NCBI GenBank assembly: GCA_035084275.1 | Contig: CM068748.1 | Coordinates: forward strand, 11,098,001-11,162,000 | Length of the DNA stretch: 64,000 bases | Origin: Hydrolagus colliei | Lineage: Eukaryota | Reading direction: 5' to 3' | Shown: piece by piece, positions 1,132 to 42,864 of the stretch | Position numbering within the stretch: the first letter of the stretch is position 1 | How the letters are laid out: each line of letters begins with the position of its first letter | Notes under the pieces: generated by a model | Seen by the model: the letters and a program-made list of their open reading frames with translations, nothing else | What the model was told of the DNA's origin: nothing | Databases searched by the model: none | Program-made: the position numbers and the translations under genes

Positions 1132-3520
1132 ATAAAACTAGAGCCTAGGGTTCTACTGTAAATTAGAACAATTCCATTATTAAACATCGAGAACCATTGG
1201 TCTAAAGTTTTGAAAGATTAACAATCTAACATTCCAATTGTTAGTCAGGTAGATTCAAAAAGGGTAAAAATAAAATTTCAAATAAAGACTGCTTACAGTC
1301 AGCATCAATTCCTTCACTATCTGACAACAGTTTTCAATCCGCTACCTTCCTTAACCCCGTGTATTCTAACAAAAGCAATCAGCAACGTACGTACATGGTA
1401 AACAAACCAATTTCTCAAATTTAATTCAGATGTGATTGAACATATGGAGTATGAACCACATACAAAAACTTGAGATGGATTAAATACAGTTTGATTTAAA
1501 GCCTACCTTTGTAGAATTAATGTTCCAAAAATGTAAACGTTTACATGGCATGAAGATTCCTATATACATCCACCTTACAAATGAATTGGTCTTAGAGATT
1601 CTTGTACCATTGATCCATGAGATTGTTATAGCTTGAGTAAGATAAACTCTTACCCTCCTTGATTACTGTTGCATCAAATATTTTCCGCTAATCAAAAAGC
1701 TGGAACCACATGGCCTTCACTGCAATTGGTGGAGTAAGTCAAAGCTCTGAAGATAATTACACAGCAAAAAGTATATCATAAACAAAGTCTGAATTCAATC
1801 AAAGATTTTAAAAATCCTATACTCAAGAACAAAATTCCATAATGTCATTGAGGGTAGACCAAAGGCTTCATCGTATTAGCAAACAGTAATAATTCCAGGA
1901 GTATTCTTCTAAGGATTTTCCAACTTTACGAGAAATGTGACACATCTGCTAAAGGAACAATAATTGTACGTTTAAATAAATACATTTTACAAATAACAGA
2001 TGGCTCAGAGAAACCACAATTTATGGGTGAAAAGTGATCATCATCACCATGAATCTAATCGTTTCTGCTTGGCATTCTATCCTTTTAAAGTGGAAGGTTA
2101 TTAAGATGCTAAAAGCATATCTATTACTGAAAGGAGAAGACCTTCAAAGTCTCTTCCGCTCTGTTCAAAAAGTGAATCATCTGTGAATAGTCCTGGTTGA
2201 AGCAATGCTAAATTTAACTGTCAATAAACTCGTTATGGGAGGAAGAGGTAGAGGTGAAAAGAGCTAGTATTTCACAAACTGAATCCAAGGACATATTGGG
2301 GTCTATATTGCAAAAACTTATGAACCATGAATCCTCCCTATACCCAGATGCAGCTCTCCGGCATGCCACTCGGGTGGTGATCTCAGTTCATTCAGCAGAT
2401 TGTGGCCACAGGGCTGACAGGAGATCCGAGTGAAACCCAAGTGGAATGTCAGCTTTACTACTTGTAGATGATTTTGTGAATCTTCCAAAATATGTTTCTA
2501 TTATCCATTGAAGAACACGTTCTGAAAGATCTGCACTCTTTGGATCAGTGGGAGTGGAATTGTGTAAGCCACTCTAAAAGGAGATAGGTTAACAGGATTT
2601 AAGGAACATTTTAATTTCAGGGAGAGTGTAAACAAAAAATAATGTTGGAAAAGATTGGACAAAGTCTAAATATATCAATCAGGCTTGATAAATATTATGC
2701 ATGCATTTTAGACAAAAAACAACAGAATTTGAATGTAAATACAGTATCAGTATCATTAAAATAAAATGTAAATGAATCACAAAGAGAACAAATTTAAATG
2801 TAAAAAGAGGAAACAGAATTGGGTGAGGGAAAGGTAGAGAACAGTCTTAGCATCAATCTAATTCCCAAAATTTTTAAGAACAGTCATCAATTCCAATCGT
2901 ATACATTTCAGCTTGAATAACATTTTATTTTTGAGCACTTGTTTATCTTAGCATTTATTCAAGAAATTTTTGTCAACTAACTGTTTTATTCCAAAAGTGA
3001 ATATATTATTGTTGTACAAAACTAAGTATACATAATGTGTGCATTAGGTATTTAAAGTTCTGTTTTTGAATGATAGTGCGAGCAATGTTGGGGAGAGTAA
3101 GCCCCCCCCAAATTCTCTACATGTTTCAATATAACATCCCAAGTCACTAAGATAACGTGATTTCAGATACGATGCTGCACTTATAATTTACGATTGTTTT
3201 CTTTCTGTTATATTTTACCCTGAAATATTTGTTTCATTAACGAGTGTGAATATCCCCACAGGAACTGTCTATAAAAGGTCATAAAATTCAATAATGTGAG
3301 GAAATCGTGTTAATGTACCATCGATAATTGTTACTGCAATTAATTGTGTGACTTCAAGTGGAAATGCTAATTTATCTTTACATGTGCATTTGTACATTAC
3401 ATACGTAATGTAAGCAAAATTCATATTCGCCTGCTAATTTCCAGTACTTAATACAGCAATAAAATGGCAAAAGGAATAGGATTTAATTAGACATACAACC
3501 TTCATTTACTGTTGGAAATA

Positions 3521-4243
3521 CAGTAGAAGCCCATTTATCCGGCACTCACGGGACCTGGCCAATGCCGGTTAAAGCACCTGCCGGATATTCGGGCGGCCCC
3601 CGGCCGAAAACCCACTACAAAAAAATTAAAGTTCTTTTAACACACACCATACACACAAGACTAAGTAATGGCAGATAGTGACAGAATGTTGTATTGGTGC
3701 TTGTTGTTGGGGCTGCTCTCTTGCGCTTCTCACCTTTGCTGGTTGGGATTTGTAGTCCAGCGATTCTTTTTGAATGGGGGGGCGCCAGGCGGGTGAAAAA
3801 AACGGCAGCGCGATTTTAAAGTCGCGCGACTTTACTAGCTGCAAGCCAAAGCCCTATACTCTAATATTGGCAAACCGAAATACTGCACCTGCGAGACAAT
3901 GTGGGTTATCGGCTAGAATTATCGGCTCGCCACTAGTATGACTTTAAAGTTTTTTCACCCGCTTGACGTGCTCCATTTTGGGCGGAGTCGCTGGACTGTA
4001 AACCTCAACCGCAGCATCATGGATTCAAGCGCAGCATCTACCAGCGGGAGGGCACGGGAAGTGGTTTTGATGGTAAGTGCCAATGAAGCATTCTGATGTT
4101 ATGTTATTATTTATGCATTTACAAATGTTCCACTGCTATTGTTCCGGATTAGTTCCGGTTCATCGAATTGAGACTTTTTTTTTGGCGTGCCGGTTATACG
4201 GAAGTGCCGGTGCATCGGGTCACGGATAAACGGGCTTCTACTG
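3521..4243. mobile_element. Tigger/pogo-like MITE, copy A
   Basis: TIR CAGTAGAAGCCC(A/G)TTTATCCG at both ends with TA duplication at 3519-3520 and 4244-4245. Inverted homolog of 13809-15248. Confidence 0.92.
3753..3998. mobile_element. Inner TcMar-type MITE embedded in copy A
   Basis: Own TIR (T)AGTCCAGCGATTC ... GAGTCGCTGGACTG|TA. The same insert is present in copy B (14052-14309). Confidence 0.7.
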
Positions 4244-4989
4244 TACAATGTTCAAATTATTATCACCATCAATACAATCCAGATCAATACCAACCCATAT
4301 GATTGAGTGTAAAAGTTATTTGGTGCCAAAAAAAGGACAGATATATCCAAAAGATATATCCAAACAGATATATCCCCCAAAAGTATCCAATGCTAACTAA
4401 AATGGATAATCCTGTTCAAGGCTCATACAAATTAACATTAAATTTAAAATAAAAGTTAGTACTGTAGGATATTTATCGCTGATTGTCTAGTGGTAATATT
4501 ATCTTAAGACTTTCATTCAGACAACCTTGAGTAAAATTAGAATCGGGATATTCGACAAAAGGCAAAGCTCCTGCAGTCTATGAGGTCATCAAATTTGTCC
4601 TTGCAGCACAAGTGCTTTTAGGGATTATGCCCACTTTGATGACCCCAACACTTTCCAGTGGGACAATACATTTTCTCATTCTGAATTAAAACCACACAGA
4701 AAATGTATTGGCATCAGTGAGCAATGGAACTTGAAATTATAATTGCAAACAGCTGTACAAATATCAACAGCACAGAATTATATTATCTATATTTACGAAA
4801 TTTGATCAGCTTTTAAAGAAAGGCAAACTCAACAGAGTAAATAACTCCCTTGCGCAGCTCACAGCACAAAAGTAAGCCTTTAGCTATTCATTCCTTCGTG
4901 TTTACAAAACAAAATTATCTTCCTGCTCAATATATCTTCTTTTCCTGTAAGGGATACATTTTCGAATACTTTAAAATTTAGTTTACACC

Positions 4990-12716: not shown

Positions 12717-13808
12717 TCATTATCAGATGCAGAAAATACCAGATTTAACCTGGCTGTCTTTGATAGGGGTGATCTGACAATCTGCTCATCTTGGTGGCCT
12801 GAATACAGCCAACAGTACTCCCACCCACACAACAGATCCTTAAGGAACCATGAAATGAAGTAAGGGCAAGCACTGAAACATAACCTGTCAAAAGTCATCA
12901 GACATTTCAAAGTGAATGCGACAACTGAATTTACATTGCTATTCATATGCCACATGTAAACCCTAGTGCCCAGAGGCTGCATGAGTCTACCAAACAGCTT
13001 AAGTCATCCATCTCTATTATTTTAACTTGCATACATTTTGGTAGTATGGGTTCCAAAACAAAGATCCCAAGAGGCATTTGATATAAGGAAAGATTCTAAA
13101 AACTCTTCTATGGACACTCATGGATAAAATGCATTAAGGCTAATTTATAAATTTAATTATTTACCATCATTCAAAATTTCAACAGTTGTTTGTACTTCCC
13201 ATTAAAAAAAATTGTCTGGCAGCATATTCCTATATCACCATTAAACAGTTCAGTTTATATATAGCAGTGCTACTTCATTGACAATTTGCATACTCTCCAA
13301 TAGTATAAATCTACTATCCTATATTACTTTCTTAGCTTAAGTTATTTTTAGGTATTTTGTTCAGGTAATAAAAAACTATTATATTTTGACAATCACATAT
13401 ACATGAAATGAATACCATTCAAAGCAAGATTTAAAAATTCTAAATGATTTTAGTAATTATCAAAACTTGTGAAAGCTAAAGACAACTGAACAATCAGTTT
13501 TGCGCCATAGGGCAACGTTTGCAAAATTTCAACCAACATTAAAAGGGTTGAAGGGAGTGAGATTCAAGTAGAAGACGATTGTGAATTTCAGCTACCATTT
13601 GTTAGAAAAAAAGATGAACATAATTGAAGGTCTTCAAAATGAAAAGGTACAAATTATATGAAAACTGAACGAGAGAATAACTGTTTCCTAAACCCCAAAC
13701 CCACAAAACAAGAATGGTCAATGTGAGGAACAGACTCTCAACAAAAACTGTTTTTTTTAATGTCAGTTAGCACATGTGTAATGTTCAGTTGTGATCAAAG
13801 GTCTAATA

Positions 13809-15248
13809 CAGTAGAAGCCCGTTTATCCGTGACTCGATGAACTGGCACTTCCATATAACTGGCACGCCAAAAAAAAAGTCCCCATTCGATAAACCGGAAC
13901 TTATCCAGAACAATAGCAGTGGAGCATTTGTAAATGCATAAATAGTAACACAATATTGTATTGGTACTTATTGTTAAAACTACTCTCTTGCACTTCTCAC
14001 CTTTGCTGGTAGATGCTGCGCTTGAAGCCATGATGCTGCAGTTGAGGCTTATAGTTCAGCGATTCTTTATAAAATGGAGCACGCCAAGCGGGTGAAAAAA
14101 ACGGAGCGCGACTTTAAAGCCTTACTAGCGGCAAGCCGATAATGCTAGCCGATAACCCACATTATCGCGCAGGTGCAGTATTTCGGTTTGCCGCTAGTAG
14201 AGTCTAGGGTTATCGGCTTGCCGCTAGTAAAGTCACGCGACTTTAAAATCTCGCTGCCGTTTTTTTCACCCGCACAGCATCCTCCATTTAAAAAAGAATC
14301 GCTGGACTGTAGGGTCTGTCGATATGGAAATTTTCCGATTTAGATATATCGATGGGCTCATATCGAGATATACCGAGATATTGATATTTTCGGGGTTTTC
14401 GTACTGCGCATGCGTGTGCATTGCGCGCGCATTCGGTGGTGCGCGCGCATTTGGGGCCTATCTCCTCAGGAGGTAAATATCTCTCTCTCTCTGTGTGTCT
14501 CTCACACTCACTCTCTCCATCTCTGTGTTTTTCTGTCTGTGTCTCTCTCCTCTCTCACATCCCCCCCATCTCTATCTATCTATCTGTATATTATCACATC
14601 CACCCCGTCTCCTCCTACCCATTTGTCCCCTCCCCACTGTCCCTCTCGCCCCCCACTCCCCCCGCCGCCGTCCCTCTCTCCCCCCCGCCGCCGTCCCTCT
14701 CTCCCCCGCGCCGCCGTCCCTCTCTTCCCTCCCCCCGCCGTCTCTCTCCAACACCCCCCCGCCGTCTCCCTCCCCCCCCTACCCCTTGCATACCTGTATA
14801 TTGTATTCGAGGACTATGAATACAATATGGCGGCTTGCACCTCGGTCTGTGCATTGTGTATAGAGATGACCATTCTGGATCTTGTAGTTCAGTGCGCGCG
14901 CATTCCGATCTTTCGGATATATCGATATTTCGAAAATATCTATATCGGCATATCGATATGAAAATTATATCGGATACAACCGATATAACGATATATCGCA
15001 GGACCCTACTGGACTGTAAACCTTTATCAGTAAAGGTGAGAAGCGCAAGAGAGTAGTTTTAACAATGAGTACCAATACAATATTCTGTTATTATCTGTTA
15101 TTATTTAATCTGGTGTGTATGGTGTGTGTTAAACAAACTTAATTTTTTTTGTGGTGGGTTTTCGGCCGCGGGCCGCCCGAATATCCGGCAGGCGCTTTAA
15201 CCGGCATTGGCCAGATACCGCGAGTGCCGGATAAACGGGTTTTTACTG
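13809..15248. mobile_element. Tigger/pogo-like MITE, copy B, with nested inserts
   Basis: TIRs CAGTAGAAGCCCGTTTATCCG and CAGTAAAAACCCGTTTATCCG with TA on both sides. Internal inverted arms of about 60 bp at about 13951-14010 and 15025-15085. Confidence 0.92.
14310..15008. mobile_element. Non-autonomous hAT (Ac-like) element
   Basis: TIRs TAGGGTCTGTCGATAT and TAGGGTCCTGCGATAT, perfect 8-bp TSD CTGGACTG (14302-14309 and 15009-15016), repeated subterminal CGATAT/ATATCG motifs and a C-rich interior. Confidence 0.92.
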
Positions 15249-16245
15249 TACAATGTTAAAAAGAGTCTTTCTTGACAGATGCTATTGCTCTTATTAATTT
15301 TATAGACCGACATTTTACATGGAGATTAGTTCCAATTATTCAGATATATTCCCATGAGCTAGGTTTTAAAGCGTTAGTATAATCTGCTCAATTGGACCAG
15401 AAGTTTGTCCACGCAGCAGATGAGTGCTTAAGGAATACTAAAGCATTTTCTACATAATTCATATATTGTACTGACAGGAATTGTCAACACTATAATCGTC
15501 AATCTTTTTGTAATAATCCTGGTGTGTCTGAGGCATTATTTCTTGAGCCAATAATAGAAGAGGAGGGTCATTGTTTTGTTCAGCTAAAGGAATCAGTGAT
15601 CCAAACTTTCCTGACAGTTATTAGAAGAGCAACACACGTATCAGAAAATTTACCTCTCAACTGAAAGGAATGTGTAAGGGTAACCATTAATTTATTCAGC
15701 GGAAAATTGCTCCCTCTTTCAAATTAACTGATTAATGCACCGATTTAATGGTTGTTTCCTCGTCAGATCATGATCTCACACAACTAGTTACAATCAAAGA
15801 AGAATGTAGGCACGAGAAAACAAGATTTAATTCAGTCAACTGGCTCCTTCATTTAGGTTCACATTTAAAAATTGGTACAGTAGTGACAAAATGACAAAAA
15901 TGGAGCAAGCGAATTACAGCAACTAACTTCAATATCCTGAAACCGGGAGCCACAGGAAAACAAAGACTTTTTAAAAATTAATGAACAAGTTGAATTCAAT
16001 CCATTAGGCCTATGAAATCCTTATGTACTTAAGTGGAATATATTTCAACCTTGACAAAGAAATCTTTGGAGAATGGAAACCCTTTCAGCCTGTCCTGGGA
16101 GATTCTGGCTAATAAGGCTCATCTAAATCTGAACAATCTTGCATTTCATCCTAAAAAGGGAATCCTCATTAATTAATAAGTTGAAAATTACTGGGATTAG
16201 CGCAGGTACTCTAGCAATAAAACATTGTAAATTTTATAATATTAT

Positions 16246-19303: not shown

Positions 19304-20847
19304 GATTCATAGATTCATAGAATTTTACGGCACAAAAGGAGGCCATTCGGCCCATCTAGTCTGTGAATCGCTCTTTGAAAAGAGCGATTCAATCCCACTG
19401 CCCTGCCCGCTCCCCATAGCCTAATAGACCTGTTCTCCCTAAATAAAGATCTAATTCCCTTTTAAAAGTTGTTATCGAATTAGCCTCCACCACCTTTTCA
19501 GGCAATGCATTCCAGATTCGAACAACTCGCTGAGTGAAAAATTTTCTACTCAGCTCCCCTCTACTTCGCCTTGAAACTATTTTAAATCTGTGACCATGAG
19601 TCACAGATTCACCCACGAGTGGAAATAGTTTTTCTCTATTTGCCCTGTCGAAACCCCTCATGATCTTATAAACCTCTATTAGGTCTCCCCTCAATCTTCT
19701 CTGCTCCAGAGAGAATAACCCTAGCCTATCTAGCCTCTCCTCATAGCTGAAGTCCCTCAATCCTGGCACCATCCTAGTAAATCTTCGCTGCACCCATTCC
19801 AATGCCTTCACATCCTTTCTGTAGTGTGGTGACCAGAATTGAACACAGTATTCCAGCTGAGGCCTCACCAAAGTCCTATAGAGGTTAGTCAGCACTTCCT
19901 GACTTTTGTACTCTATACCCCTATTTATAAAGCCTAGTATCCCATATGCCTTCTTAACAGCCTTGTCTACCTGTCCTGCCACCTTCAACGAGTCACTAAC
20001 ACAAATCCCCAGGTCTCTCTGTTCCTTCACACCATTTAAAATTGTACTATCTAGCCTATATTGCCTCCCTTCATTTCTTCTCCCAAAATGCATCACCTCA
20101 CACTTCTCTGCATTAAACTTCATCTGCCATGTGTCTGCCCACTTTACCAATTTGTCTATATCCTCTTGCAGATGGCTACTATCCTCCTCACTATTTACTA
20201 TTCTCCCTAACTTAGTGTCATCTGCAAACTTGGAAACTGTACTCCGTACACCCAAGTCCAGATCATTGATGTAGATTACAAACAGCAATGGTCCCAAAAC
20301 TGATCCCTGTGGCACACCACTGCTCACTTCCCTCCAATCTGAAAAACAGCCGCTCACTACAACTCTCTGCTTTCTGTCTCGCAGCCAGTTGTGGGTCCAC
20401 GCTGCCACTATCCCTTTTACGCCATGGGCCTTTAATTTCATAATAAGTCTCTCATGTGGCACTTTGTCAAATGCCTTTTGAAAGTCCATGTAAACTACAT
20501 CAACTGCGCTACCATTATCCACCCATTCCGTTACCTCATCAAAAAATTCTATCAGATTTGTAAGGCAAGATTTGCCTTTAACAAATCCATGTTGACTGTC
20601 CTTTATTAGCCTATATCTTTCTAAGTGAAGATCTACCTTGTCCCTGATTATGGACTCTAGAAGTTTGCCCACTACCGACGTTAGACTGACTGGTCTGTAG
20701 TTACCAGGCTTGTCCTTCTGCCCCTTTTTATACAAGGGAGTAACATTAGCTATCCTCCAGTCCTCTGGCACAACCCCTGTGTCCAAGGAAGATTGAAAGA
20801 TCGTGGCCAGAGTCCCTGCTATTTGCTCCCGTGCCTCACTTAGTAAG
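19304..20847 (-). mobile_element. Young 5'-truncated CR1 LINE (RT domain to 3' tail)
   Basis: About 485 uninterrupted codons of CR1 ORF2 (PEDWRIANVTPLYKKG, NYRPVSLTS, GVPQGSVLGP, KFADDTKL), stop at 19389, 3'UTR and (ATTCTATG/AATCTATG) octamer tail. Confidence 0.97.
19389..20847 (-). pseudogene. Partial CR1 ORF2 reverse transcriptase (no endonuclease domain, no true start)
   Basis: ORF 19389-20906. Its first ~20 codons are flanking DNA. The RT motifs are intact. Confidence 0.9.
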
Positions 20848-23800
20848 CTCAGATGATGGACGTCTTCGTCCAAACCAATTTTGTGATCATTTTTCACTGC
20901 TCCCACTTTTTATTTAGTGTTTTCATTTGTTCTTTCAATATAATTTACATTTATATAACATTTTATATCGGGAGGATCTGTCATAGCACTTTATGCTGCT
21001 GGTTATCCAAACTGCTTATTATAAGGTGTTGAATCATATCCAGATATTATAATATTCCAGTAGTTTTCTCCTCTAAGTCATTTATAAAAAGTATGACGAC
21101 AACCCAGAACAGACTGGTAAAATATACTATTTATTGGCTTCCTGGAGTTTTTCCTACTTATCATCTTCTGCTTCCAATGCCTCCTTGAAATCAGAGCTAT
21201 ATCAGCTGTATTGCCAAAGCTAAAAAGGTAAGTGCACCATCACTAGAGTGTGCATTGGACTGTTCCTCCCCAAGGAGGACATAACTAATAGCTGGCATTA
21301 TGGGTTAATGGTCAAAATCCTTAACATTTACAATAAATTGTAGGATCTTTGAATAGTTAATGAAACAAATCATTTAAAAGCTCATCTGCCTTCTCTACAA
21401 TTCAGTAATATCGATTAAATATAATCTATCGGATAAACCTCATTACGTATATTCACCTTTGTCCTGCACAAAATTACTGGTACTAATGTAGCTTTTTTTG
21501 TTAAAAGCCCCAAAAAGAGTATTTTATAATCAAGTTGTTCATGTGTGAAAACAAATGCATATTACAGCCATAATCATCCAATGTTATGCATGCCATCCAT
21601 AATTAAACTCTAATTTATACAGTGAAAAATGCTGAAAAAAGTACAATACAATTTACGGTTGAAATGCAACTGATTCACACTATGAACTTTCAGGCAAATT
21701 ATGCTGCTAACACCACCTTGTATTGGATTGGTCTCCCACTACCAGTACCCCTCCAGATTTGCTAATCCTTTTCTTAATGGCAGAAAACCTCTGATTTGCA
21801 TCAATGTGGTACATAAAGCTATTAATTTGTTTACATTATACTGGATCAAAGGATTTGTACAGTGTTCAAATATGGTCCATTAACAATGCTTTTAACAGGC
21901 TATTTTTAACATTATTAATGTACTGGACAAACTCTTGGTCTTTTAACAACATGAAAATGTTTGGTGTTGGTCAGAAGAGCTCTCTGTATGGGATAAACAT
22001 AAGCAAAGACTCTCTTAAAAAAGTTATCCATTAAAACTCACTTTCCTGCCTTTCCCCATAACCCACAACATTTCTATTTTCAACCAGTTGTCTCCACATA
22101 GTTTTTCCAGGCCGTTACAACTAAATGTGACACTGCAAATAATATTTTTATCTTCCTCTCAAAATGGTTTAAATCTAAATATACACCACAGAAATGTTTT
22201 GCTCTGCATTAACCAACTAAAACTTTAAATGTCTCACTTGCACTAACTAGATAGTGCTGTGCCAGTTGTTACAAGATAATGAAAATAAATGACATTCAAT
22301 TTTTTGGTGACTTTTTTGTTATTTTTTTTCTCTCCTGAGATTAATTGCTAAGTGTGTACATTCATGCAAGATGTTCCGGATGGAAGCACCATAACACTGA
22401 AAATCAGAGGAACGAATGTTTAAACAAGATCACTTTTTGCAAACTGGAAAATATATCCTGATCCAAGCGAGATCAAGCTACAATATCTTCCTGCTCAGCC
22501 ATTTCACATTGAAAATTGTCTGCTCCAAATCTCATGCTGAATTAAGCAATTACTTCCCTATCTACCCTTAAGCCCATTCTTGTAGTAATCAACCTCAAAT
22601 ATATCGAATAGCTGCCTTCGATATTGAATTTCACCTTCTTCGTTTTCCGAACTTCCTCATATCACAAAATGTGTTTGTTCAAACAGCTTTGTTATATTAC
22701 AAACAGCTGAACCAAACTGAACATCAAACAAAAACAATAACTTGGATATTCCACGATCTATCACAAAAGTCATATCTGTTTGCTCCAAGATAAGTCTATT
22801 CCTCTATCATCAAAGAAAGGAATGCTTTTTTAAAAAATTTGGATGATGTTTTTCTTATCTTCGTTGAAGCAGCAGGTAACAGAGGTTTATAAAATCCAAA
22901 TAAAAATGTTGAACAGTGTTGTAATTATTTTATGTTCTCCAGCTATTTCCTCCCTAACTTATATGGAACTAGGGTGTTCCATAACATTTTTACAGACTAC
23001 CCAGCCTTAGGTATACTCTTGACAGCGAATTCAAGCAAAACGATTATACAGTAAAAGCAAAATGCAAATTTGTGAACAATGATCCTGTTAGTCACGTTTT
23101 TAAAATCACTGAACATTGCAGGCCCAATTTTTTTTCAATCAAATTTGACTGATTATAACATCCACAGCTCTGGATATATATATTTCTCTCTTTAAGAAAG
23201 CTTAAATAAGAATGGTCACTCACTCCAACTGTGTAGCTTAGTAATAAAAGACAACCTGTCCAAACTATACCAAGTAGACTACATTGTTCTAGCATTGTCT
23301 TTTTGTAAGCTGCATTGTTGAAGCAATTTATAAATGTTTATAAATCTAGCAAGCACACTAAAATTATGAAAATAATATGCAATAAAATAATGTATTTTGG
23401 GACAGGGTGTTAGGTGAAGTGTTCCAGTTTCAATCAGACTTAAATTACCGCCTATTCCTCTGTTTTAATTCAAAAGCAAAGATCAATTTCAGGTTAAAGT
23501 AATGGAATTCTGCATCTGCTTTTAGAACTTTGTGTTTCACTAAAACAGCATATTCTAAGACGTCCTTTATTATTAGGCCCAAATTAGACTAAAATTATAG
23601 TTTTGAATATATTTTATGAATTAAGATTCAAAAGGACTAAACTTCCTTTCGTTGAATGCAGCAATGCTGTGTTCAAAACAGAAATCGGTCTTTTGTGGCT
23701 TAATTTAACTAACCAAGCCCTATTTACAGAATTGTATTTTATTTATATTAGCTTCCTTTATTATCATCTGTATGCCATCTGTAATACGTTGATGATTGAT

Positions 23801-29275: not shown

Positions 29276-30727
29276 TAATTGATTGGGCTGCGTATAGAGT
29301 CAGAAAAATGAACTCTGGAGCATTCAAGTGTCCACCTTAATGTACACACATGGGACATTATCTTTCTGTGATCCTTTTAGTATTAGGCTTTATTTCCAGG
29401 CATTAGAACTCTGTTTCAGTAAAATGTTACAATTATGAAACACTTCTGCTAGTCACCTAACATGTACGTTTTCAAAGATATAAGAATTTTAAAAATTAGC
29501 TGTAAATTATTTAACTGGCCAATAACTAATACAAGTGTCAATTGGATAATGAATGACAAAAAAGAAAAAAATGATTTTTGTATTTCCATCTAAAAGATTA
29601 AAGATCAAAATCTACAATCTTGACTTACTGAAGTTGACATACATCACCAGAATGTATAGTCATCTATCAGCTATGTTTTATTCAGCACAGTAGTAGTTAG
29701 TGCCATACTCAAAACCTGAGATGATCAAAGGTGACTCTTTTTGATTAAATTCTTGGCAGTCTTGTTGAAGCTGCCCATTTGTAATGAGTTACGACATATT
29801 GATAGGTATTATGAAATCTGCTATATAAGTCGCACCTTTGCTCCCAAAAGTCCGGTCTCTAAATATAGCGCAATGATTTTAACACCGGTTCATTTTTGGG
29901 GGTTTTACAAAAATGGTAAGTATAAATTAGGGAGTGACTTTATTGACCAGTAATTCTGATGGAACAAATATATTGATGTGAAATCTTGTACAATATGATT
30001 GTCATGCATAATAATTCACCATTTGGTAATTACCATTTTGGTAGAAAATGCTTCCATGTCCCCTGAAAAAGTAAGGACAAGGATGCCATGAACACTGAGG
30101 TGGAATAATTTGATTCAGAATGGATTCTAACATGAATATTTTTGAAACAACCACACTCTTTAAACAAGAGATTACTCATTATTTTGCAGCAGAGATACTC
30201 CAGATTGGCAGTTAGCTCGCTAAGGTTGTTCTATGTACATGGTGTTTTACCACATACAAATGTCTGCTTTCAGGCAAATCTGATGCTCAATTCGCCTAAT
30301 CTAATCAACTTCAAAAGTGCAAAATAAAAAAAAATCCATAAAAGTGTAGGTGAGTTGTCATAAGACATTAATACCTTTCTGCAAACTTCATAGTGCATCA
30401 ATACCCTTTTGTGAATGTTATCATGCATCAAGGACATCACCCATCAGCAACTAGCTTCAAAACAAATGTCAAAGTACCTCAGTCAAAGAAAGCAACAATG
30501 AGTTCAAGAGTTGAAATTTAATCTCTGGGTGTTTATAAATTCAATCAAATTTTGATGTTATCGTTTAATCAGTCATCCAAACCTCATGATTAGCTGATAG
30601 CCTTGAAATTTACTACATATCTAGTATGCATGAACACTATCACATTTAAATAGGGTATTTGTAAAAATTATGTGATTTTAATTTATTATTTGATATTTAT
30701 TTCACATCATTAAGTACAGTATAACAG

Positions 30728-31329
30728 TAGAGTACAAAAGTCAGGAAGTGCTGACTAACCTCTATAAAACTTTGGTTAGGCCTCAGCTGGAATACTGTGT
30801 TCAATTCTATTCACCACACTACAGAATGGATGTTAAGGCATTGGAAAAGGTGCAAAGAAGGTTTACTAGAATGGTACCAGGATTGAGGGAATTCAGTTAT
30901 GAGGAAAGGCTAGATAGACTAGGTTTATTCTCTTTAGAACAGAGAAGGTTGAGAGGAGACCTAATAGAAGTTTATAAAATCATGAGGAGAATCGACAGGG
31001 TGAATAAGGTAAAACTGTTTCCACTGGTGGATGAATCTGTGACTCGTGGTCACAGATTTAAGATAGTTTCAAAACGAAGCAGAGGAGAAATGTTTTCACT
31101 CAGCAGGTTGTTCAAATCTGGAATCAAATCTTGCTTGAAAAGGTGGTGGAGGCCGATTTGATAACAGCTTTTAAAAGAGAATTAGATCTTTATTTAGGGA
31201 GAACAGGTCTGTTAGGTTATAGGGAGAGAGCTGAGCAGTGGGATTGAGTTGCTCTTTGCAAAGAGCCGGCACAGACTAGATGGGCCGAATGACCTCCTTT
31301 TGTGCTGTAAAATTCTATGATTCTATGAT
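30728..31329 (+). mobile_element. CR1 LINE 3' end, related to the young CR1
   Basis: LYKTLVRPQLEYCVQF...LFSLEQRRLRGDLIEVYK, a deletion/frameshift near 31090, and tail attctatgattctatga. Confidence 0.95.
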
Positions 31330-33061: not shown

Positions 33062-33640
33062 TAGGGTCCGTCGATACGATGGGCTCATATCGAGATATAC
33101 CGAAATATCGATATTTTCAGGGTTTCGTACTGCGCATGTGCGCACAGCGCGCGGATTCAGAGTGTGCGCGCATCCCGGGTGCGCACACATTCGGGGCCTA
33201 TCTCCTCAGGAGGTAAATATCTTTCTCTAACTGTGTCTCTCACTCTCTCCATCTTTGTGTTTTTCTGTCTGTGTCTCTGTGACATCCCCCCATCTCTATC
33301 TATCTGTATATTATCACATCCACCCCATCTCTCCCCCCACCCTCCCCCCACCCCCTGCCGTCTCTCTCCCTCCCCCCCCGCCGTCACTCTCCCCCCCCCC
33401 CCCTCCCCCCCTCTCCCCCACCACCCCCCCCCAGCCGTCTCTCTCTCCCTCCCCTTCCCGCCATCTGTCTCTCCCCCCAACCTCCCCCTAGCCGTCTCTC
33501 TCTCCCCCCACAGCCTACTCTCTCCCCTCACCCCCCCCCCCCAGCCGTCTCTCTCCCCCCCCACCCCCCCAGCCGTCTCTCTCCCCCCTACCCACCCCCA
33601 GCCGTCTCTCTCCCCCCCTCACCCCCACCCAGCCTGTCCC
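33062..33640. mobile_element. Left half of the hAT MITE family with expanded C-rich minisatellite
   Basis: Starts TAGGGTCCGTCGATA and aligns to 14310-14610. No right TIR is visible. Confidence 0.88.
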
Positions 33641-33658
33641 TGGGGGGAAAAAAGAATA

Positions 33659-33911
33659 CAGTAAAAGCTTGGTTATCCGGCACCCTCGGGACCTGACCGG
33701 TGCTGTTTTATCAAATATGCCGGATATTCGAGTTATTTTAAAACATACCATATTAATATTAGACTAAATAAGAACAGAATATTTGCACGCATGCGCAAAG
33801 TGAGCATAATCCGATATGAGATCCTTTTGCTGGAATGGTGAATTGTATTGGGAGATACCGGTTGGTAGACCGTGCCGGTTGGTTGGGTGCCGGGTAATCA
33901 AGCTTTTACTG
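33659..33911. mobile_element. Tigger-like MITE, copy D
   Basis: TIR CAGTAAAAGCTTG(G/A)TTA(T/C)CCGGCACCC, TA-flanked. Inverted homolog of 41350-41739. Confidence 0.9.
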
Positions 33912-40480: not shown

Positions 40481-41349
40481 GATCCTAATTTCTCGGATTC
40501 GTTAATCATGTGTAAAAAAAGCACATGCAAGAGGGAAGTACAAGTGTTCTTAATTATGTAATTATCTAATAAGGATAATAAATATATGTGATCCTTTCAC
40601 TGGTCACTGGTAATTCAGGGCAATGTAATTATTTCTGTACTCGTGTTTACACACCGTTATGGTTAACACAACCAACAAATTAAATCTTTTTACTTTGGTC
40701 TTAAAATTTTTAAATATGGAATAAAGGAGGGGAAATTCATTGCAAATAAATAATAAATCAAAGGGCAGTGGAGAAAAGTTGACACATAGAAAAGTAGAAA
40801 AAATAACACAACAAGCCACAACATGAAACAAACCTATCAGTCATGCCACTGAAACTGAATAATTAATTTCAGTAACAGCCCACATTCTATTTCTATACTA
40901 TCCTTTTGAAAACAGATACATATACAATATTTCCATATGGTCTCTCCTTTGCTCATAAATTCTCATACGGGTTTCTCTGAAGAAAATTCACACACAAACA
41001 CATAAAAGCTGAAGTAGAAAAAAATAAATTGAAGATGTGGATACAATGAGGTTCAAGAGAAATTGATGCAGACAAAAACAAAATGAGTTTAAACAGAAAG
41101 ATGCAAAAAATAAATATTATGGAGAGAGGAGGAAAATAAAAATGACTCAAATGCATAAGTAACAATAAACAAACTAAACAGTAAGGAAAAAAGAAAAATG
41201 AACGATAGAAGGGTAATATAGTAAAATAAACACTGTTGAGAGAAATAAACAGAATAACCTTGGTTTGTGTATAAAATCAATCAACCACCAAATGGTTACC
41301 ATTTACATTGCAGATTAAATTCAAATTAAGTGAGCACCTGCACTAATTA

Positions 41350-41739
41350 CAGTAAAAGCTTGGTTATCTGACAACCAACCAACTGGCACGTTCAACCAAC
41401 CGGTATCTCCCAATACAAGCAAAATTTGAGCATACGCGGATTTCCCCGCGCGCATGCGCACTTATTAAACTTATCGAACGCGATTTTACCGAGTGCGCTG
41501 TTTTCCAGGAACGTAACCCCCGTGTTCGGCAAGGATTGACTGTACTATTTATGTATGCTTTATTGGTAAGTATCTATACAATATTCTGTTATTATTTAGT
41601 CTACTATTAATATGGTATGTTTTAAAATAAGTAAATTTTTTGTGTAGGAATTTCAACAACTTGCCACTCGAATATCCGCATATTTGATTAACCGGCACCG
41701 GTCAACTCCCAAGGGTGCCGGATAACAAAGCTTTTACTG
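41350..41739. mobile_element. Tigger-like MITE, copy E
   Basis: TIR CAGTAAAAGCTT(G/T)GTTATC, TA-flanked. Contains the end of another Tigger-like element (ttccaggaacgtaacccccgtg...gactgta) at about 41503-41544. Confidence 0.88.
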
Positions 41740-42864
41740 TACTTAGTGTCTGACTACGACATTCGTCACAAGAAAGTGGTCAAATCCATGCCTTCATTAA
41801 TACAATTTGAAAAGTATTGAAAAATTTATCCAGGATTATGTGACCTAAGACTGATATATTGATTGATACACACATTGTAATTCATAATTCTATGGACCGT
41901 AAACTATATAATGCATTTGGTATCTACACATTACACAGTAAAACATCAAGAATGTATGTTGTCTATTTGGTTTATTCATGATGAGCGTAATAGCAGCAAC
42001 TAAACAGTAACTAAATAATAGTTGGGCCAAAGAAATTTAGAAATAACCAGTTTAATCTATTCTTGTTTTAATGTTAACGGCAAAATCAAACATAACTACA
42101 AACTCTTGTTAGCATATGCCCTGCGAGCAGAAATTTTGATTAGAATTGTTGGAATGAGATTTTGACTGACCATTGTGACTATTCACTTGGGGAACAACGT
42201 GTAATGTAAGGTTTTGTAGGGAATATAAATCTCCATCCCAAGCAGCTTGTGTGAGTAGCACAAATATTACTTTTCTATGAAAATGTAATGAATATCCTAA
42301 GTATGAACTTCTACAGAAAAATAAAATCATAGAAGACTGGGATTGTTTTTTCTCTCTGTTGATTGTACTATATTACATATTCGTATGTAAGAAATGCTGT
42401 ATATAAAATGAATATAGCACATTGATAATTAGCAGCACTCGGTCAAGGCTTGCCTCTTAGATTTCTTTCTTATTTTCAATCAAAATAAGGCTGTAGGCTG
42501 ATTTAAGTCACAATCAACAACAATACCCATTTGAGGTAATAGACAAGCAATCTGGTGTGTTCTTTGTGTTAACCTTTGCCAGATGTAGCAACCAATAGCA
42601 TTATTTGAAGAAAAACATCTGTAAACTCAGAAAAGCAGAAAATATTACAACATGGAAGGAGGCCATTCAGATCATTGAATCTGTGCTACTGTTAGTTTTT
42701 TTTTTAAAAAAATTCTATCCTTTCAGGTCTTTCCCTTTTGTTTACTCCTCGGGTGTTTAACCAGATCCCTTTCAACAATTTTATTTAAGTCTTAAACAGT
42801 TAAATTCCATTATACCTTGCATAATTTCTAACAATTGCATTGATATAGTTGATTTGAGAGTGCT

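Follow-up and report, generated by a model that had tools for sequence, protein, structure and literature searches.

A-to-G changes resembling ADAR hyper-editing in subfamilies of a pogo/Tigger-type MITE from Hydrolagus colliei

ADAR acting on long duplex RNA converts A to I only, with a reported ceiling of 50–60% and the 5' neighbour preference U>A>C>G (PMC3113232). The changes that we describe here in a MITE share with this hyper-editing of transcripts, as it is presented there, the A-to-I type, the long duplex, the ceiling of 50–60% and the preference for 5' U/A over C/G, but transcript editing is transient and confined to RNA, whereas the changes in the MITE are inherited DNA. In an avian retrovirus, an inverted repeat acquired ~50% A>G changes from ADAR hypermutation (Hajjar and Linial 1995; Felder 1994, as described in the review PMC12925331). 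As in the MITE, about half of the As in the inverted repeat are read as G, in the virus after reverse transcription. The RNA of this virus is its genome and reverse transcription belongs to its normal cycle; the MITE, in contrast, is a class II element without an RNA stage, whose changes have become fixed in germline DNA and are present in hundreds of copies. Strand-biased, clustered hypermutation of genomic copies was also described for the APOBEC editing of vertebrate LTR retrotransposons by Knisbacher and Levanon (PMC4866542), but there the changes are G>A on the retroelement sense strand and were made on the cDNA, unlike the A>G changes in the MITE. DNA transposons, which are defined as moving without an RNA stage, served as the negative control in that genome-wide scan, where 268 of 17,912,167 carried G>A clusters (PMC4866542). 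Since the filter described in that work kept G>A and not A>G, an A>G signal was not looked for. A survey of trace archives reported an A>G excess in traces derived from RNA, not from DNA (PMC2873906). No report of ADAR-edited subfamilies of DNA transposons was found in the literature covered, a coverage that stops short of subscription journals, repeat-database notes and supplements. The parts of the process proposed below are known, and the chain, repeated and then amplified by cut-and-paste, appears to be new.

The window analysed here is a stretch of 64,000 nucleotides of contig CM068748.1 (positions 11,098,001 to 11,162,000). It contains a TA-flanked pogo/Tigger-type MITE at 3519..4245 on the plus strand (copy A), which belongs to the plus-strand-edited lineage G1 and groups with 40 other copies. 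Like pogo/Tigger MITEs in general, the family of copy A has short terminal inverted repeats (TIRs), TA flanks, no intact ORF and ends as in a DDE_1 transposase element; unlike in them, it is changes of the editing type, not ordinary point mutations, that separate its subfamilies. The inverted ends of copy A are 23 bp including the TA, with 96% identity: the left TA and TIR lie at 3519..3541, a terminus shared with the transposase-bearing element L243, and the right TIR and TA at 4223..4245. The unedited MITE folds into a near-perfect stem of ~150 bp with a single bulge. From this fold, the approximate limits of the left stem arm in copy A are 3662..3818 (changed sites at 3670-3788), those of the central loop with a short inner hairpin, which is unchanged, 3819..3940, and those of the right arm, where A>G changes are also found, 3941..4112, all on the plus strand. 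The right arm is an inverted duplicate of the transposase 5' region, and its one-sided bulge (4009..4043, plus strand) contains the old transposase start codon, an ATG at 4019.

Copy B (13807..15250, minus strand) is unedited and aligns with copy A across the entire element. It has A0 letters at the diagnostic sites that separate haplotype A0 from the parent haplotype P, and thus represents the commoner sister haplotype and not the direct parent type. Copy B is interrupted by an unrelated insertion of 699 bp (14310..15008, minus strand), presumably hAT-like, with an 8-bp duplication (CAGTCCAG) read from the sequence. A purine/pyrimidine-skewed element at ~33065-33660 resembles this insertion, with similar frame translations, and seems to adjoin a relative at 33655. 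A more distant relative at 41340..41744 on the minus strand, used as an outgroup, keeps A in the shared portion of the left arm.

The sequence-only reading had noticed an A-to-G skew between copies A and B, and the alignment confirmed it: 38 columns have A in copy B and G in copy A, while 10 are the opposite. Of these 38, our count of the positions places 32 in 3665-3782 and 3980-4100. That these patches are both arms of a fold-back also held, since 45 of the 49 As changed in lineage G1 pair with T in the unedited fold. On the other hand, copy A itself was not the target of hypermutation, as had been proposed. When the 29 best-matching other hits in the genome are reduced to their majority sequence, copy A shows only 2 A>G relative to it among 158 As; its Gs were therefore inherited, and a private hypermutation of this copy is ruled out by the same Gs in those hits.

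Thousands of candidates came from a genome search, and searches with copy B recovered copies that keep A at the changed sites. Between the majorities of the G set and the A set (30 and 43 copies), there are 50 A/G columns in addition to 4 substitutions of other kinds and 2 indels. In the genome, the G form was represented by 588 exact matches to a 17-base marker (298 forward and 290 reverse; control, 0), so that copy A shares its Gs with an edited subfamily that amplified. From these matches and the estimated retention of the marker, ranging from 0.34-0.40 (other 17-mers) to 21/29 (similarity-picked copies), the G-form copies would number roughly 800-1,700 genome-wide. By the terms of the sequence-only reading, a family consensus with G would refute it. 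The consensus of copy A's subfamily does carry G, but the signal stands, since A is found in both the parent type and the autonomous relative. Contigs of short reads from another sample (X5) and from two other organisms (X6 and X12) also held pieces of the G form; for example, X6 covers 3660-3760 with 8 letters different, and X12 covers 3689-3761 with 5 different; an unedited copy would differ at more than 10 sites over such stretches. This read support for the Gs is at the family level, as the contigs of X1 and X5 break inside copy A. The occurrence in independent short-read contigs excludes an assembly artefact, and it suggests that the edited form predates the split of the species holding it.

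When lineage G1 (27 copies including copy A) was compared with the majority of 10 unedited P copies, 49 substitutions were found; 49/49 were A>G and all were in the stem. The parental state is uncertain at one of the 49, and without it 48 of 108 stem As were changed, while none of the 99 As outside the stem was (p=6e-17), in agreement with the proposed restriction of the excess to the paired arms. Counting only As after T or A, the values were 40/72 in the stem and 0/62 outside. Relative to the parent yardstick sequence, copy A alone shows 40 A>G within the stem and a single one elsewhere. The centre had been described as spared together with the outer TIRs, and indeed 0 of 36 As were changed in copy A at 3803-3956; the A7 run assigned to this centre, however, lies in the stem and is changed in the sister lineage G4. 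The 9 As in the bulge at 4009..4043 were unchanged in all four plus-strand lineages, which is weak evidence, because in 7 of the 9 the preceding base is C, which is disfavoured. A total of 107 other inverted repeats of at least 50 bp, a small sample from 769 kb of partly overlapping fetched sequence, showed no comparable skew (best, 15:2; p=0.002, uncorrected).

A search for DDE_1 yielded a 2.4-kb element, L243:520-2948 (DDE_1, 160.6 bits), the ends of which are 84-90% alike to those of the MITE. It is a decayed close relative with the ends and the transposase of an autonomous partner, and at most a candidate for the mobilising copy. The MITE consists of the left end and the right end of an L243-type element plus an inverted duplication of its 5' transposase region. 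MASSAASTSKG is still encoded by the right arm of the parent yardstick. The MITE thus evidently derives from a 2.4-kb DDE_1 transposase element and acquired its stem through the inverted duplication; what had been taken for a separate inner MITE is this duplication. Two further elements, L241 (G000:C22:14016829-14020362) and L242, are of the pogo type; their open frames span 611 and 618 codons, and their ends are related to those of the MITE. Runs of near-identical DDE_1 matches at G000:C38:4.17-4.35 Mb and C3:104.1-104.8 Mb suggest tandem or segmental duplication.

These transposase-type relatives bear on the direction of the change. At the covered sites, A was found at 41 of 47 in L243 (2 G), 28 of 32 in L241, 22 of 24 in L242 and 11 of 11 in L267, and the A form is the perfect inverted repeat. 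Judged from these relatives, A is ancestral at the changed sites, as the sequence-only reading had supposed, and the reverse polarity, with G ancestral, is ruled out.

Sixty more loci were added to the sample (one without a hit), and 101 near-full plus-strand copies were clustered. Four patterns were obtained, G1 (41 copies, 48 sites), G3 (5 copies, 40 sites), G4 (27 copies, 47 sites) and G5 (25 copies, 45 sites), beside 3 singletons. Other copies showed T>C in the stem, i.e., A>G on the opposite strand, with 39 exact matches to their marker. These minus-strand copies formed the patterns C1 (15 copies, 32 sites) and C3 (9 copies, 36 sites), with L154 (40 sites) and L297 (27 sites) as single copies; C1 differed from the yardstick by 32 T>C and 3 other majority differences. 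In all, at least seven heritable patterns can be told apart. Among 263 distinct copies, a sample chosen by similarity or marker and hence not random, 112 were plus-edited, 31 were minus-edited and 0 were both, and none of the 235 well-covered copies had an A>G fraction between 10% and 20%. The minus-strand copies are not inversions or arm swaps of plus copies, as the loop, the bulge and arm-specific letters keep their orientation. A plus pattern and a mirrored minus pattern shared 21-28 sites, as compared with 12-17 expected, about twice chance. The Jaccard index was 0.44-0.57 for plus against mirrored minus, 0.55-0.73 within plus and 0.49-0.57 within minus patterns. Because the opposite strands represent separate events with overlapping mirror sites, the choice of sites is reproducible, as with an enzyme.

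The best tree of the four plus patterns needs at least 79 gains for 63 sites, so that these patterns are not cleanly nested; 28 sites are common to all four and 45 are changed in none, and the patterns could be partly nested or recombined, with some common ancestry. Two independent events, one for each strand, are certain, and seven or more are likely. The events took place in founders of subfamilies, on both strands and several times, and the orientation of the host gene at copy A, from which the sequence-only reading had argued, is therefore irrelevant. Beside these groups, we observed half-edited mosaics with unedited parent-type parts (L135:1316-2059 and L207) and one copy with its own pattern (L182). 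The DNA hairpin is predicted to be less stable after editing, at -126 and -103 kcal/mol for the two strands as compared with about -183 kcal/mol for the unedited form. Deletions of at least 8 bases were present in 13 of 18 unedited copies with the parent marker and in 25 of 58 plus-edited copies, which are not independent of one another.

The fraction of stem As changed was 40-48/108 for the plus patterns and 32-40/~106 for the minus patterns, 30-45% overall. In G1, changes occurred at 21 of 31 As after T, 20 of 41 after A, 4 of 22 after C and 4 of 14 after G. The claim that most changed As follow T or A is thus correct (41/72 after T/A and 8/36 after C/G; p=0.0009), and this preference was seen in four patterns (p=0.0009, 0.0008, 0.004 and 0.024), in tests that share sites and are not independent. 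The claimed avoidance of a 5' G did not reach significance, either in G1 (4/14 after G and 45/94 for the rest; p=0.25) or across the patterns (p=0.09-0.39), and As with a 3' G showed no excess of changes in G1 (8/22). A fold-back molecule would be changed on the same strand in its two arms, and this is the pattern seen. As opposite C in the fold seem favoured: those at yardstick positions 492, 546 and 548 were changed in all four plus lineages and that at 220 in one. However, the G at 173, 546 and 548 may have been retained from A0 instead of edited, which would reduce the mismatch argument to two sites. The extent, the 5' T/A preference and the confinement to the stem fit ADAR acting on folded RNA.

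The edited copies descend from haplotype P, marked by several non-editing changes, and not from the commoner A0: none of the 102 scorable edited copies carries at least 3 of 5 A0 alleles, in contrast to 61 of 79 unedited copies. The marker of unedited P-type copies had 358 exact matches in the genome. P differs from A0 also by four one-strand G>A changes in the stem (yardstick 173, 424, 546 and 548), which create mismatches in the fold. If any transcribed copy could be written back, editing would not be expected in P only, and one or a few source loci, or a short time window, must be assumed.

The edited copies have the properties of ordinary DNA transposon insertions. Both TIRs were present in 100 of 117 edited copies; TA was found on both sides in 67 of the 82 aligned end to end, and in 17 of 21 minus-strand copies, and copies with both ends present are TA-flanked. 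With TIRs and TA flanks at unrelated sites, the edited copies multiplied as DNA transposons. No pair among 463 flanks shared both sides, a comparison of low power with 143 edited copies of an estimated thousand or more, and this shared-flank search found no carrier retroelement or source locus. Thirteen pairs shared a single junction, and those viewed were separate insertions into one common repeat, not a source locus or carrier. Six copies (L078, L130, L159, L205, L206 and L231) lie at almost the same TA, close to the end of one abundant repeat, an apparent hot spot of insertion. At non-CpG sites outside the stem every group is ~4% diverged, so the ages give no order of the groups, and this equality places editing and spread within the same burst. 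The proposed decay from CA through CG to TG was also observed: at the site in question, C>T was present in 13 of the 41 members of the lineage to which copy A belongs and in 0 of 13 unedited parent-type copies. CpGs made by the A>G changes thus later decayed as in DNA.

Taken together, ADAR-edited RNA was probably written back into DNA, either by cDNA or by repair at the donor site; this judgement is drawn from substitution patterns among copies. The sequence-only reading of an ADAR-like signature, with an edited transcript written back and then transposed, remains the best fit, except that the event did not take place at the locus of copy A. More specifically, we consider it more likely than not that the patterns arose by ADAR hyper-editing of transcripts, which were reverse-transcribed and then spread by transposase. 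Transcripts running in either direction through parent-type copies would fold back, and ADAR would deaminate them, leaving its own pattern on each molecule. The reverse transcriptase of a retroelement would copy the edited RNA in the germline, reading I as G, and the transposase would then cut the TIR-bounded element out of this cDNA or of a retrocopy made from it, so that neither a poly(A) tail nor remains of the flanks would be expected in the descendants. We infer the reverse transcription and the RNA stage of the MITE from the copies themselves. As for possible enzymes, the genome has 19 A_deamin matches at five places, a family match that covers ADAR, ADAD or ADAT1. The window holds a 506-codon frame at 19389-20909 on the minus strand (RVT_1, E 4.5e-35), an RT-coding LINE remnant that we take to be CR1-like, with a second piece at 30694-31161. 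A broader interpretation, which we put forward only tentatively, is that this class II transposon repeatedly passed through an RNA stage, with at least seven edited RNAs from both strands founding more than half of the subfamily in one burst, and that the edits are the fossil tag of a routine RNA-to-DNA route.

Edited RNA could also have been written back in place, if the break left by excision was repaired by Pol theta or a LINE RT on the edited transcript of the locus, which would put an edited element back between the old flanks, from where it was then transposed. Such repair would give clean TA flanks and both strands without a retrocopy, several patterns of the same age as the unedited copies (~4%) without private mutations, and the half-edited L135 and L207 with their unedited parent-type parts. 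We regard it as unlikely, since any excising copy should qualify and yet only haplotype P was edited, and half-edited mosaics are also expected from ordinary DNA gap repair between copies; moreover, the vertebrate germline is not known to repair 750 bp on an RNA template through a strong hairpin. Reverse transcription would not be needed at all if ADAR directly deaminated the DNA strand of RNA:DNA hybrids on the element. Full-length ADAR2 is reported to deaminate the DNA strand of long matched hybrids with the usual context preferences, and the same source saw no ADAR deamination of an all-DNA duplex (PMC5389660), so that a DNA hairpin would be a poor substrate. Yet a cognate R-loop would span the loop, the bulge and the ends, where 0 of 99 As were changed, transposase-sense RNA predicts A>G and T>C on opposite arms of a copy, a combination present in 0 of the 263 copies, and dozens of inosines would need to escape repair simultaneously; direct deamination is thus improbable. 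A deaminase of single strands would be expected to hit the loops, the reverse of the pattern seen.

Placement of G opposite T by an error-prone polymerase (Pol eta or iota) during gap repair would produce same-strand A>G changes at WA, and the same-strand changes and the 5' T/A preference resemble the WA signature. It is very improbable, considering that all 49 changes are A>G without A>T, A>C or indel errors and that they are sharply limited to the paired parts of the two arms. The error rate of Pol eta amounts to a few percent per site, and Pol iota copies in a highly distributive manner. The remaining candidates, namely an APOBEC-like G>A change with reversed polarity, sequencing errors and a TpA-directed mutator, we consider extremely improbable as a group. 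DNA editing of vertebrate genomes is known in the form of G>A hypermutation (PMC4866542), but this would have to run from G to A relative to the ancestor, whereas the ancestor has A, as the autonomous relatives and the perfect inverted repeat of the A form indicate. Errors would not recur in 298 forward and 290 reverse matches and in independent short-read contigs, and a TpA mutator does not account for the change of As after A (20/41) or for the restriction to one strand per copy. The DNA-level alternatives raised by the sequence-only reading, a Pol-eta-like mutator or a deaminase on a DNA hairpin or R-loop, accordingly fit worse than edited RNA.

If the write-back of ADAR-edited RNA is true, this family holds a countable and dated record of edited RNA written back into the vertebrate germline, a long-argued question, and it preserves the site-level preferences of ADAR from several single molecules of an ancient animal. 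If the RNA stage was indeed repeated, its route, whether excision from cDNA or RNA-templated repair of the donor, would escape notice in families that form no hairpin. Edited copies in such genomes would mislead subfamily trees, estimates of age and calls of RNA editing. Editing may then create new transposon subfamilies, and not only restrain transposons.
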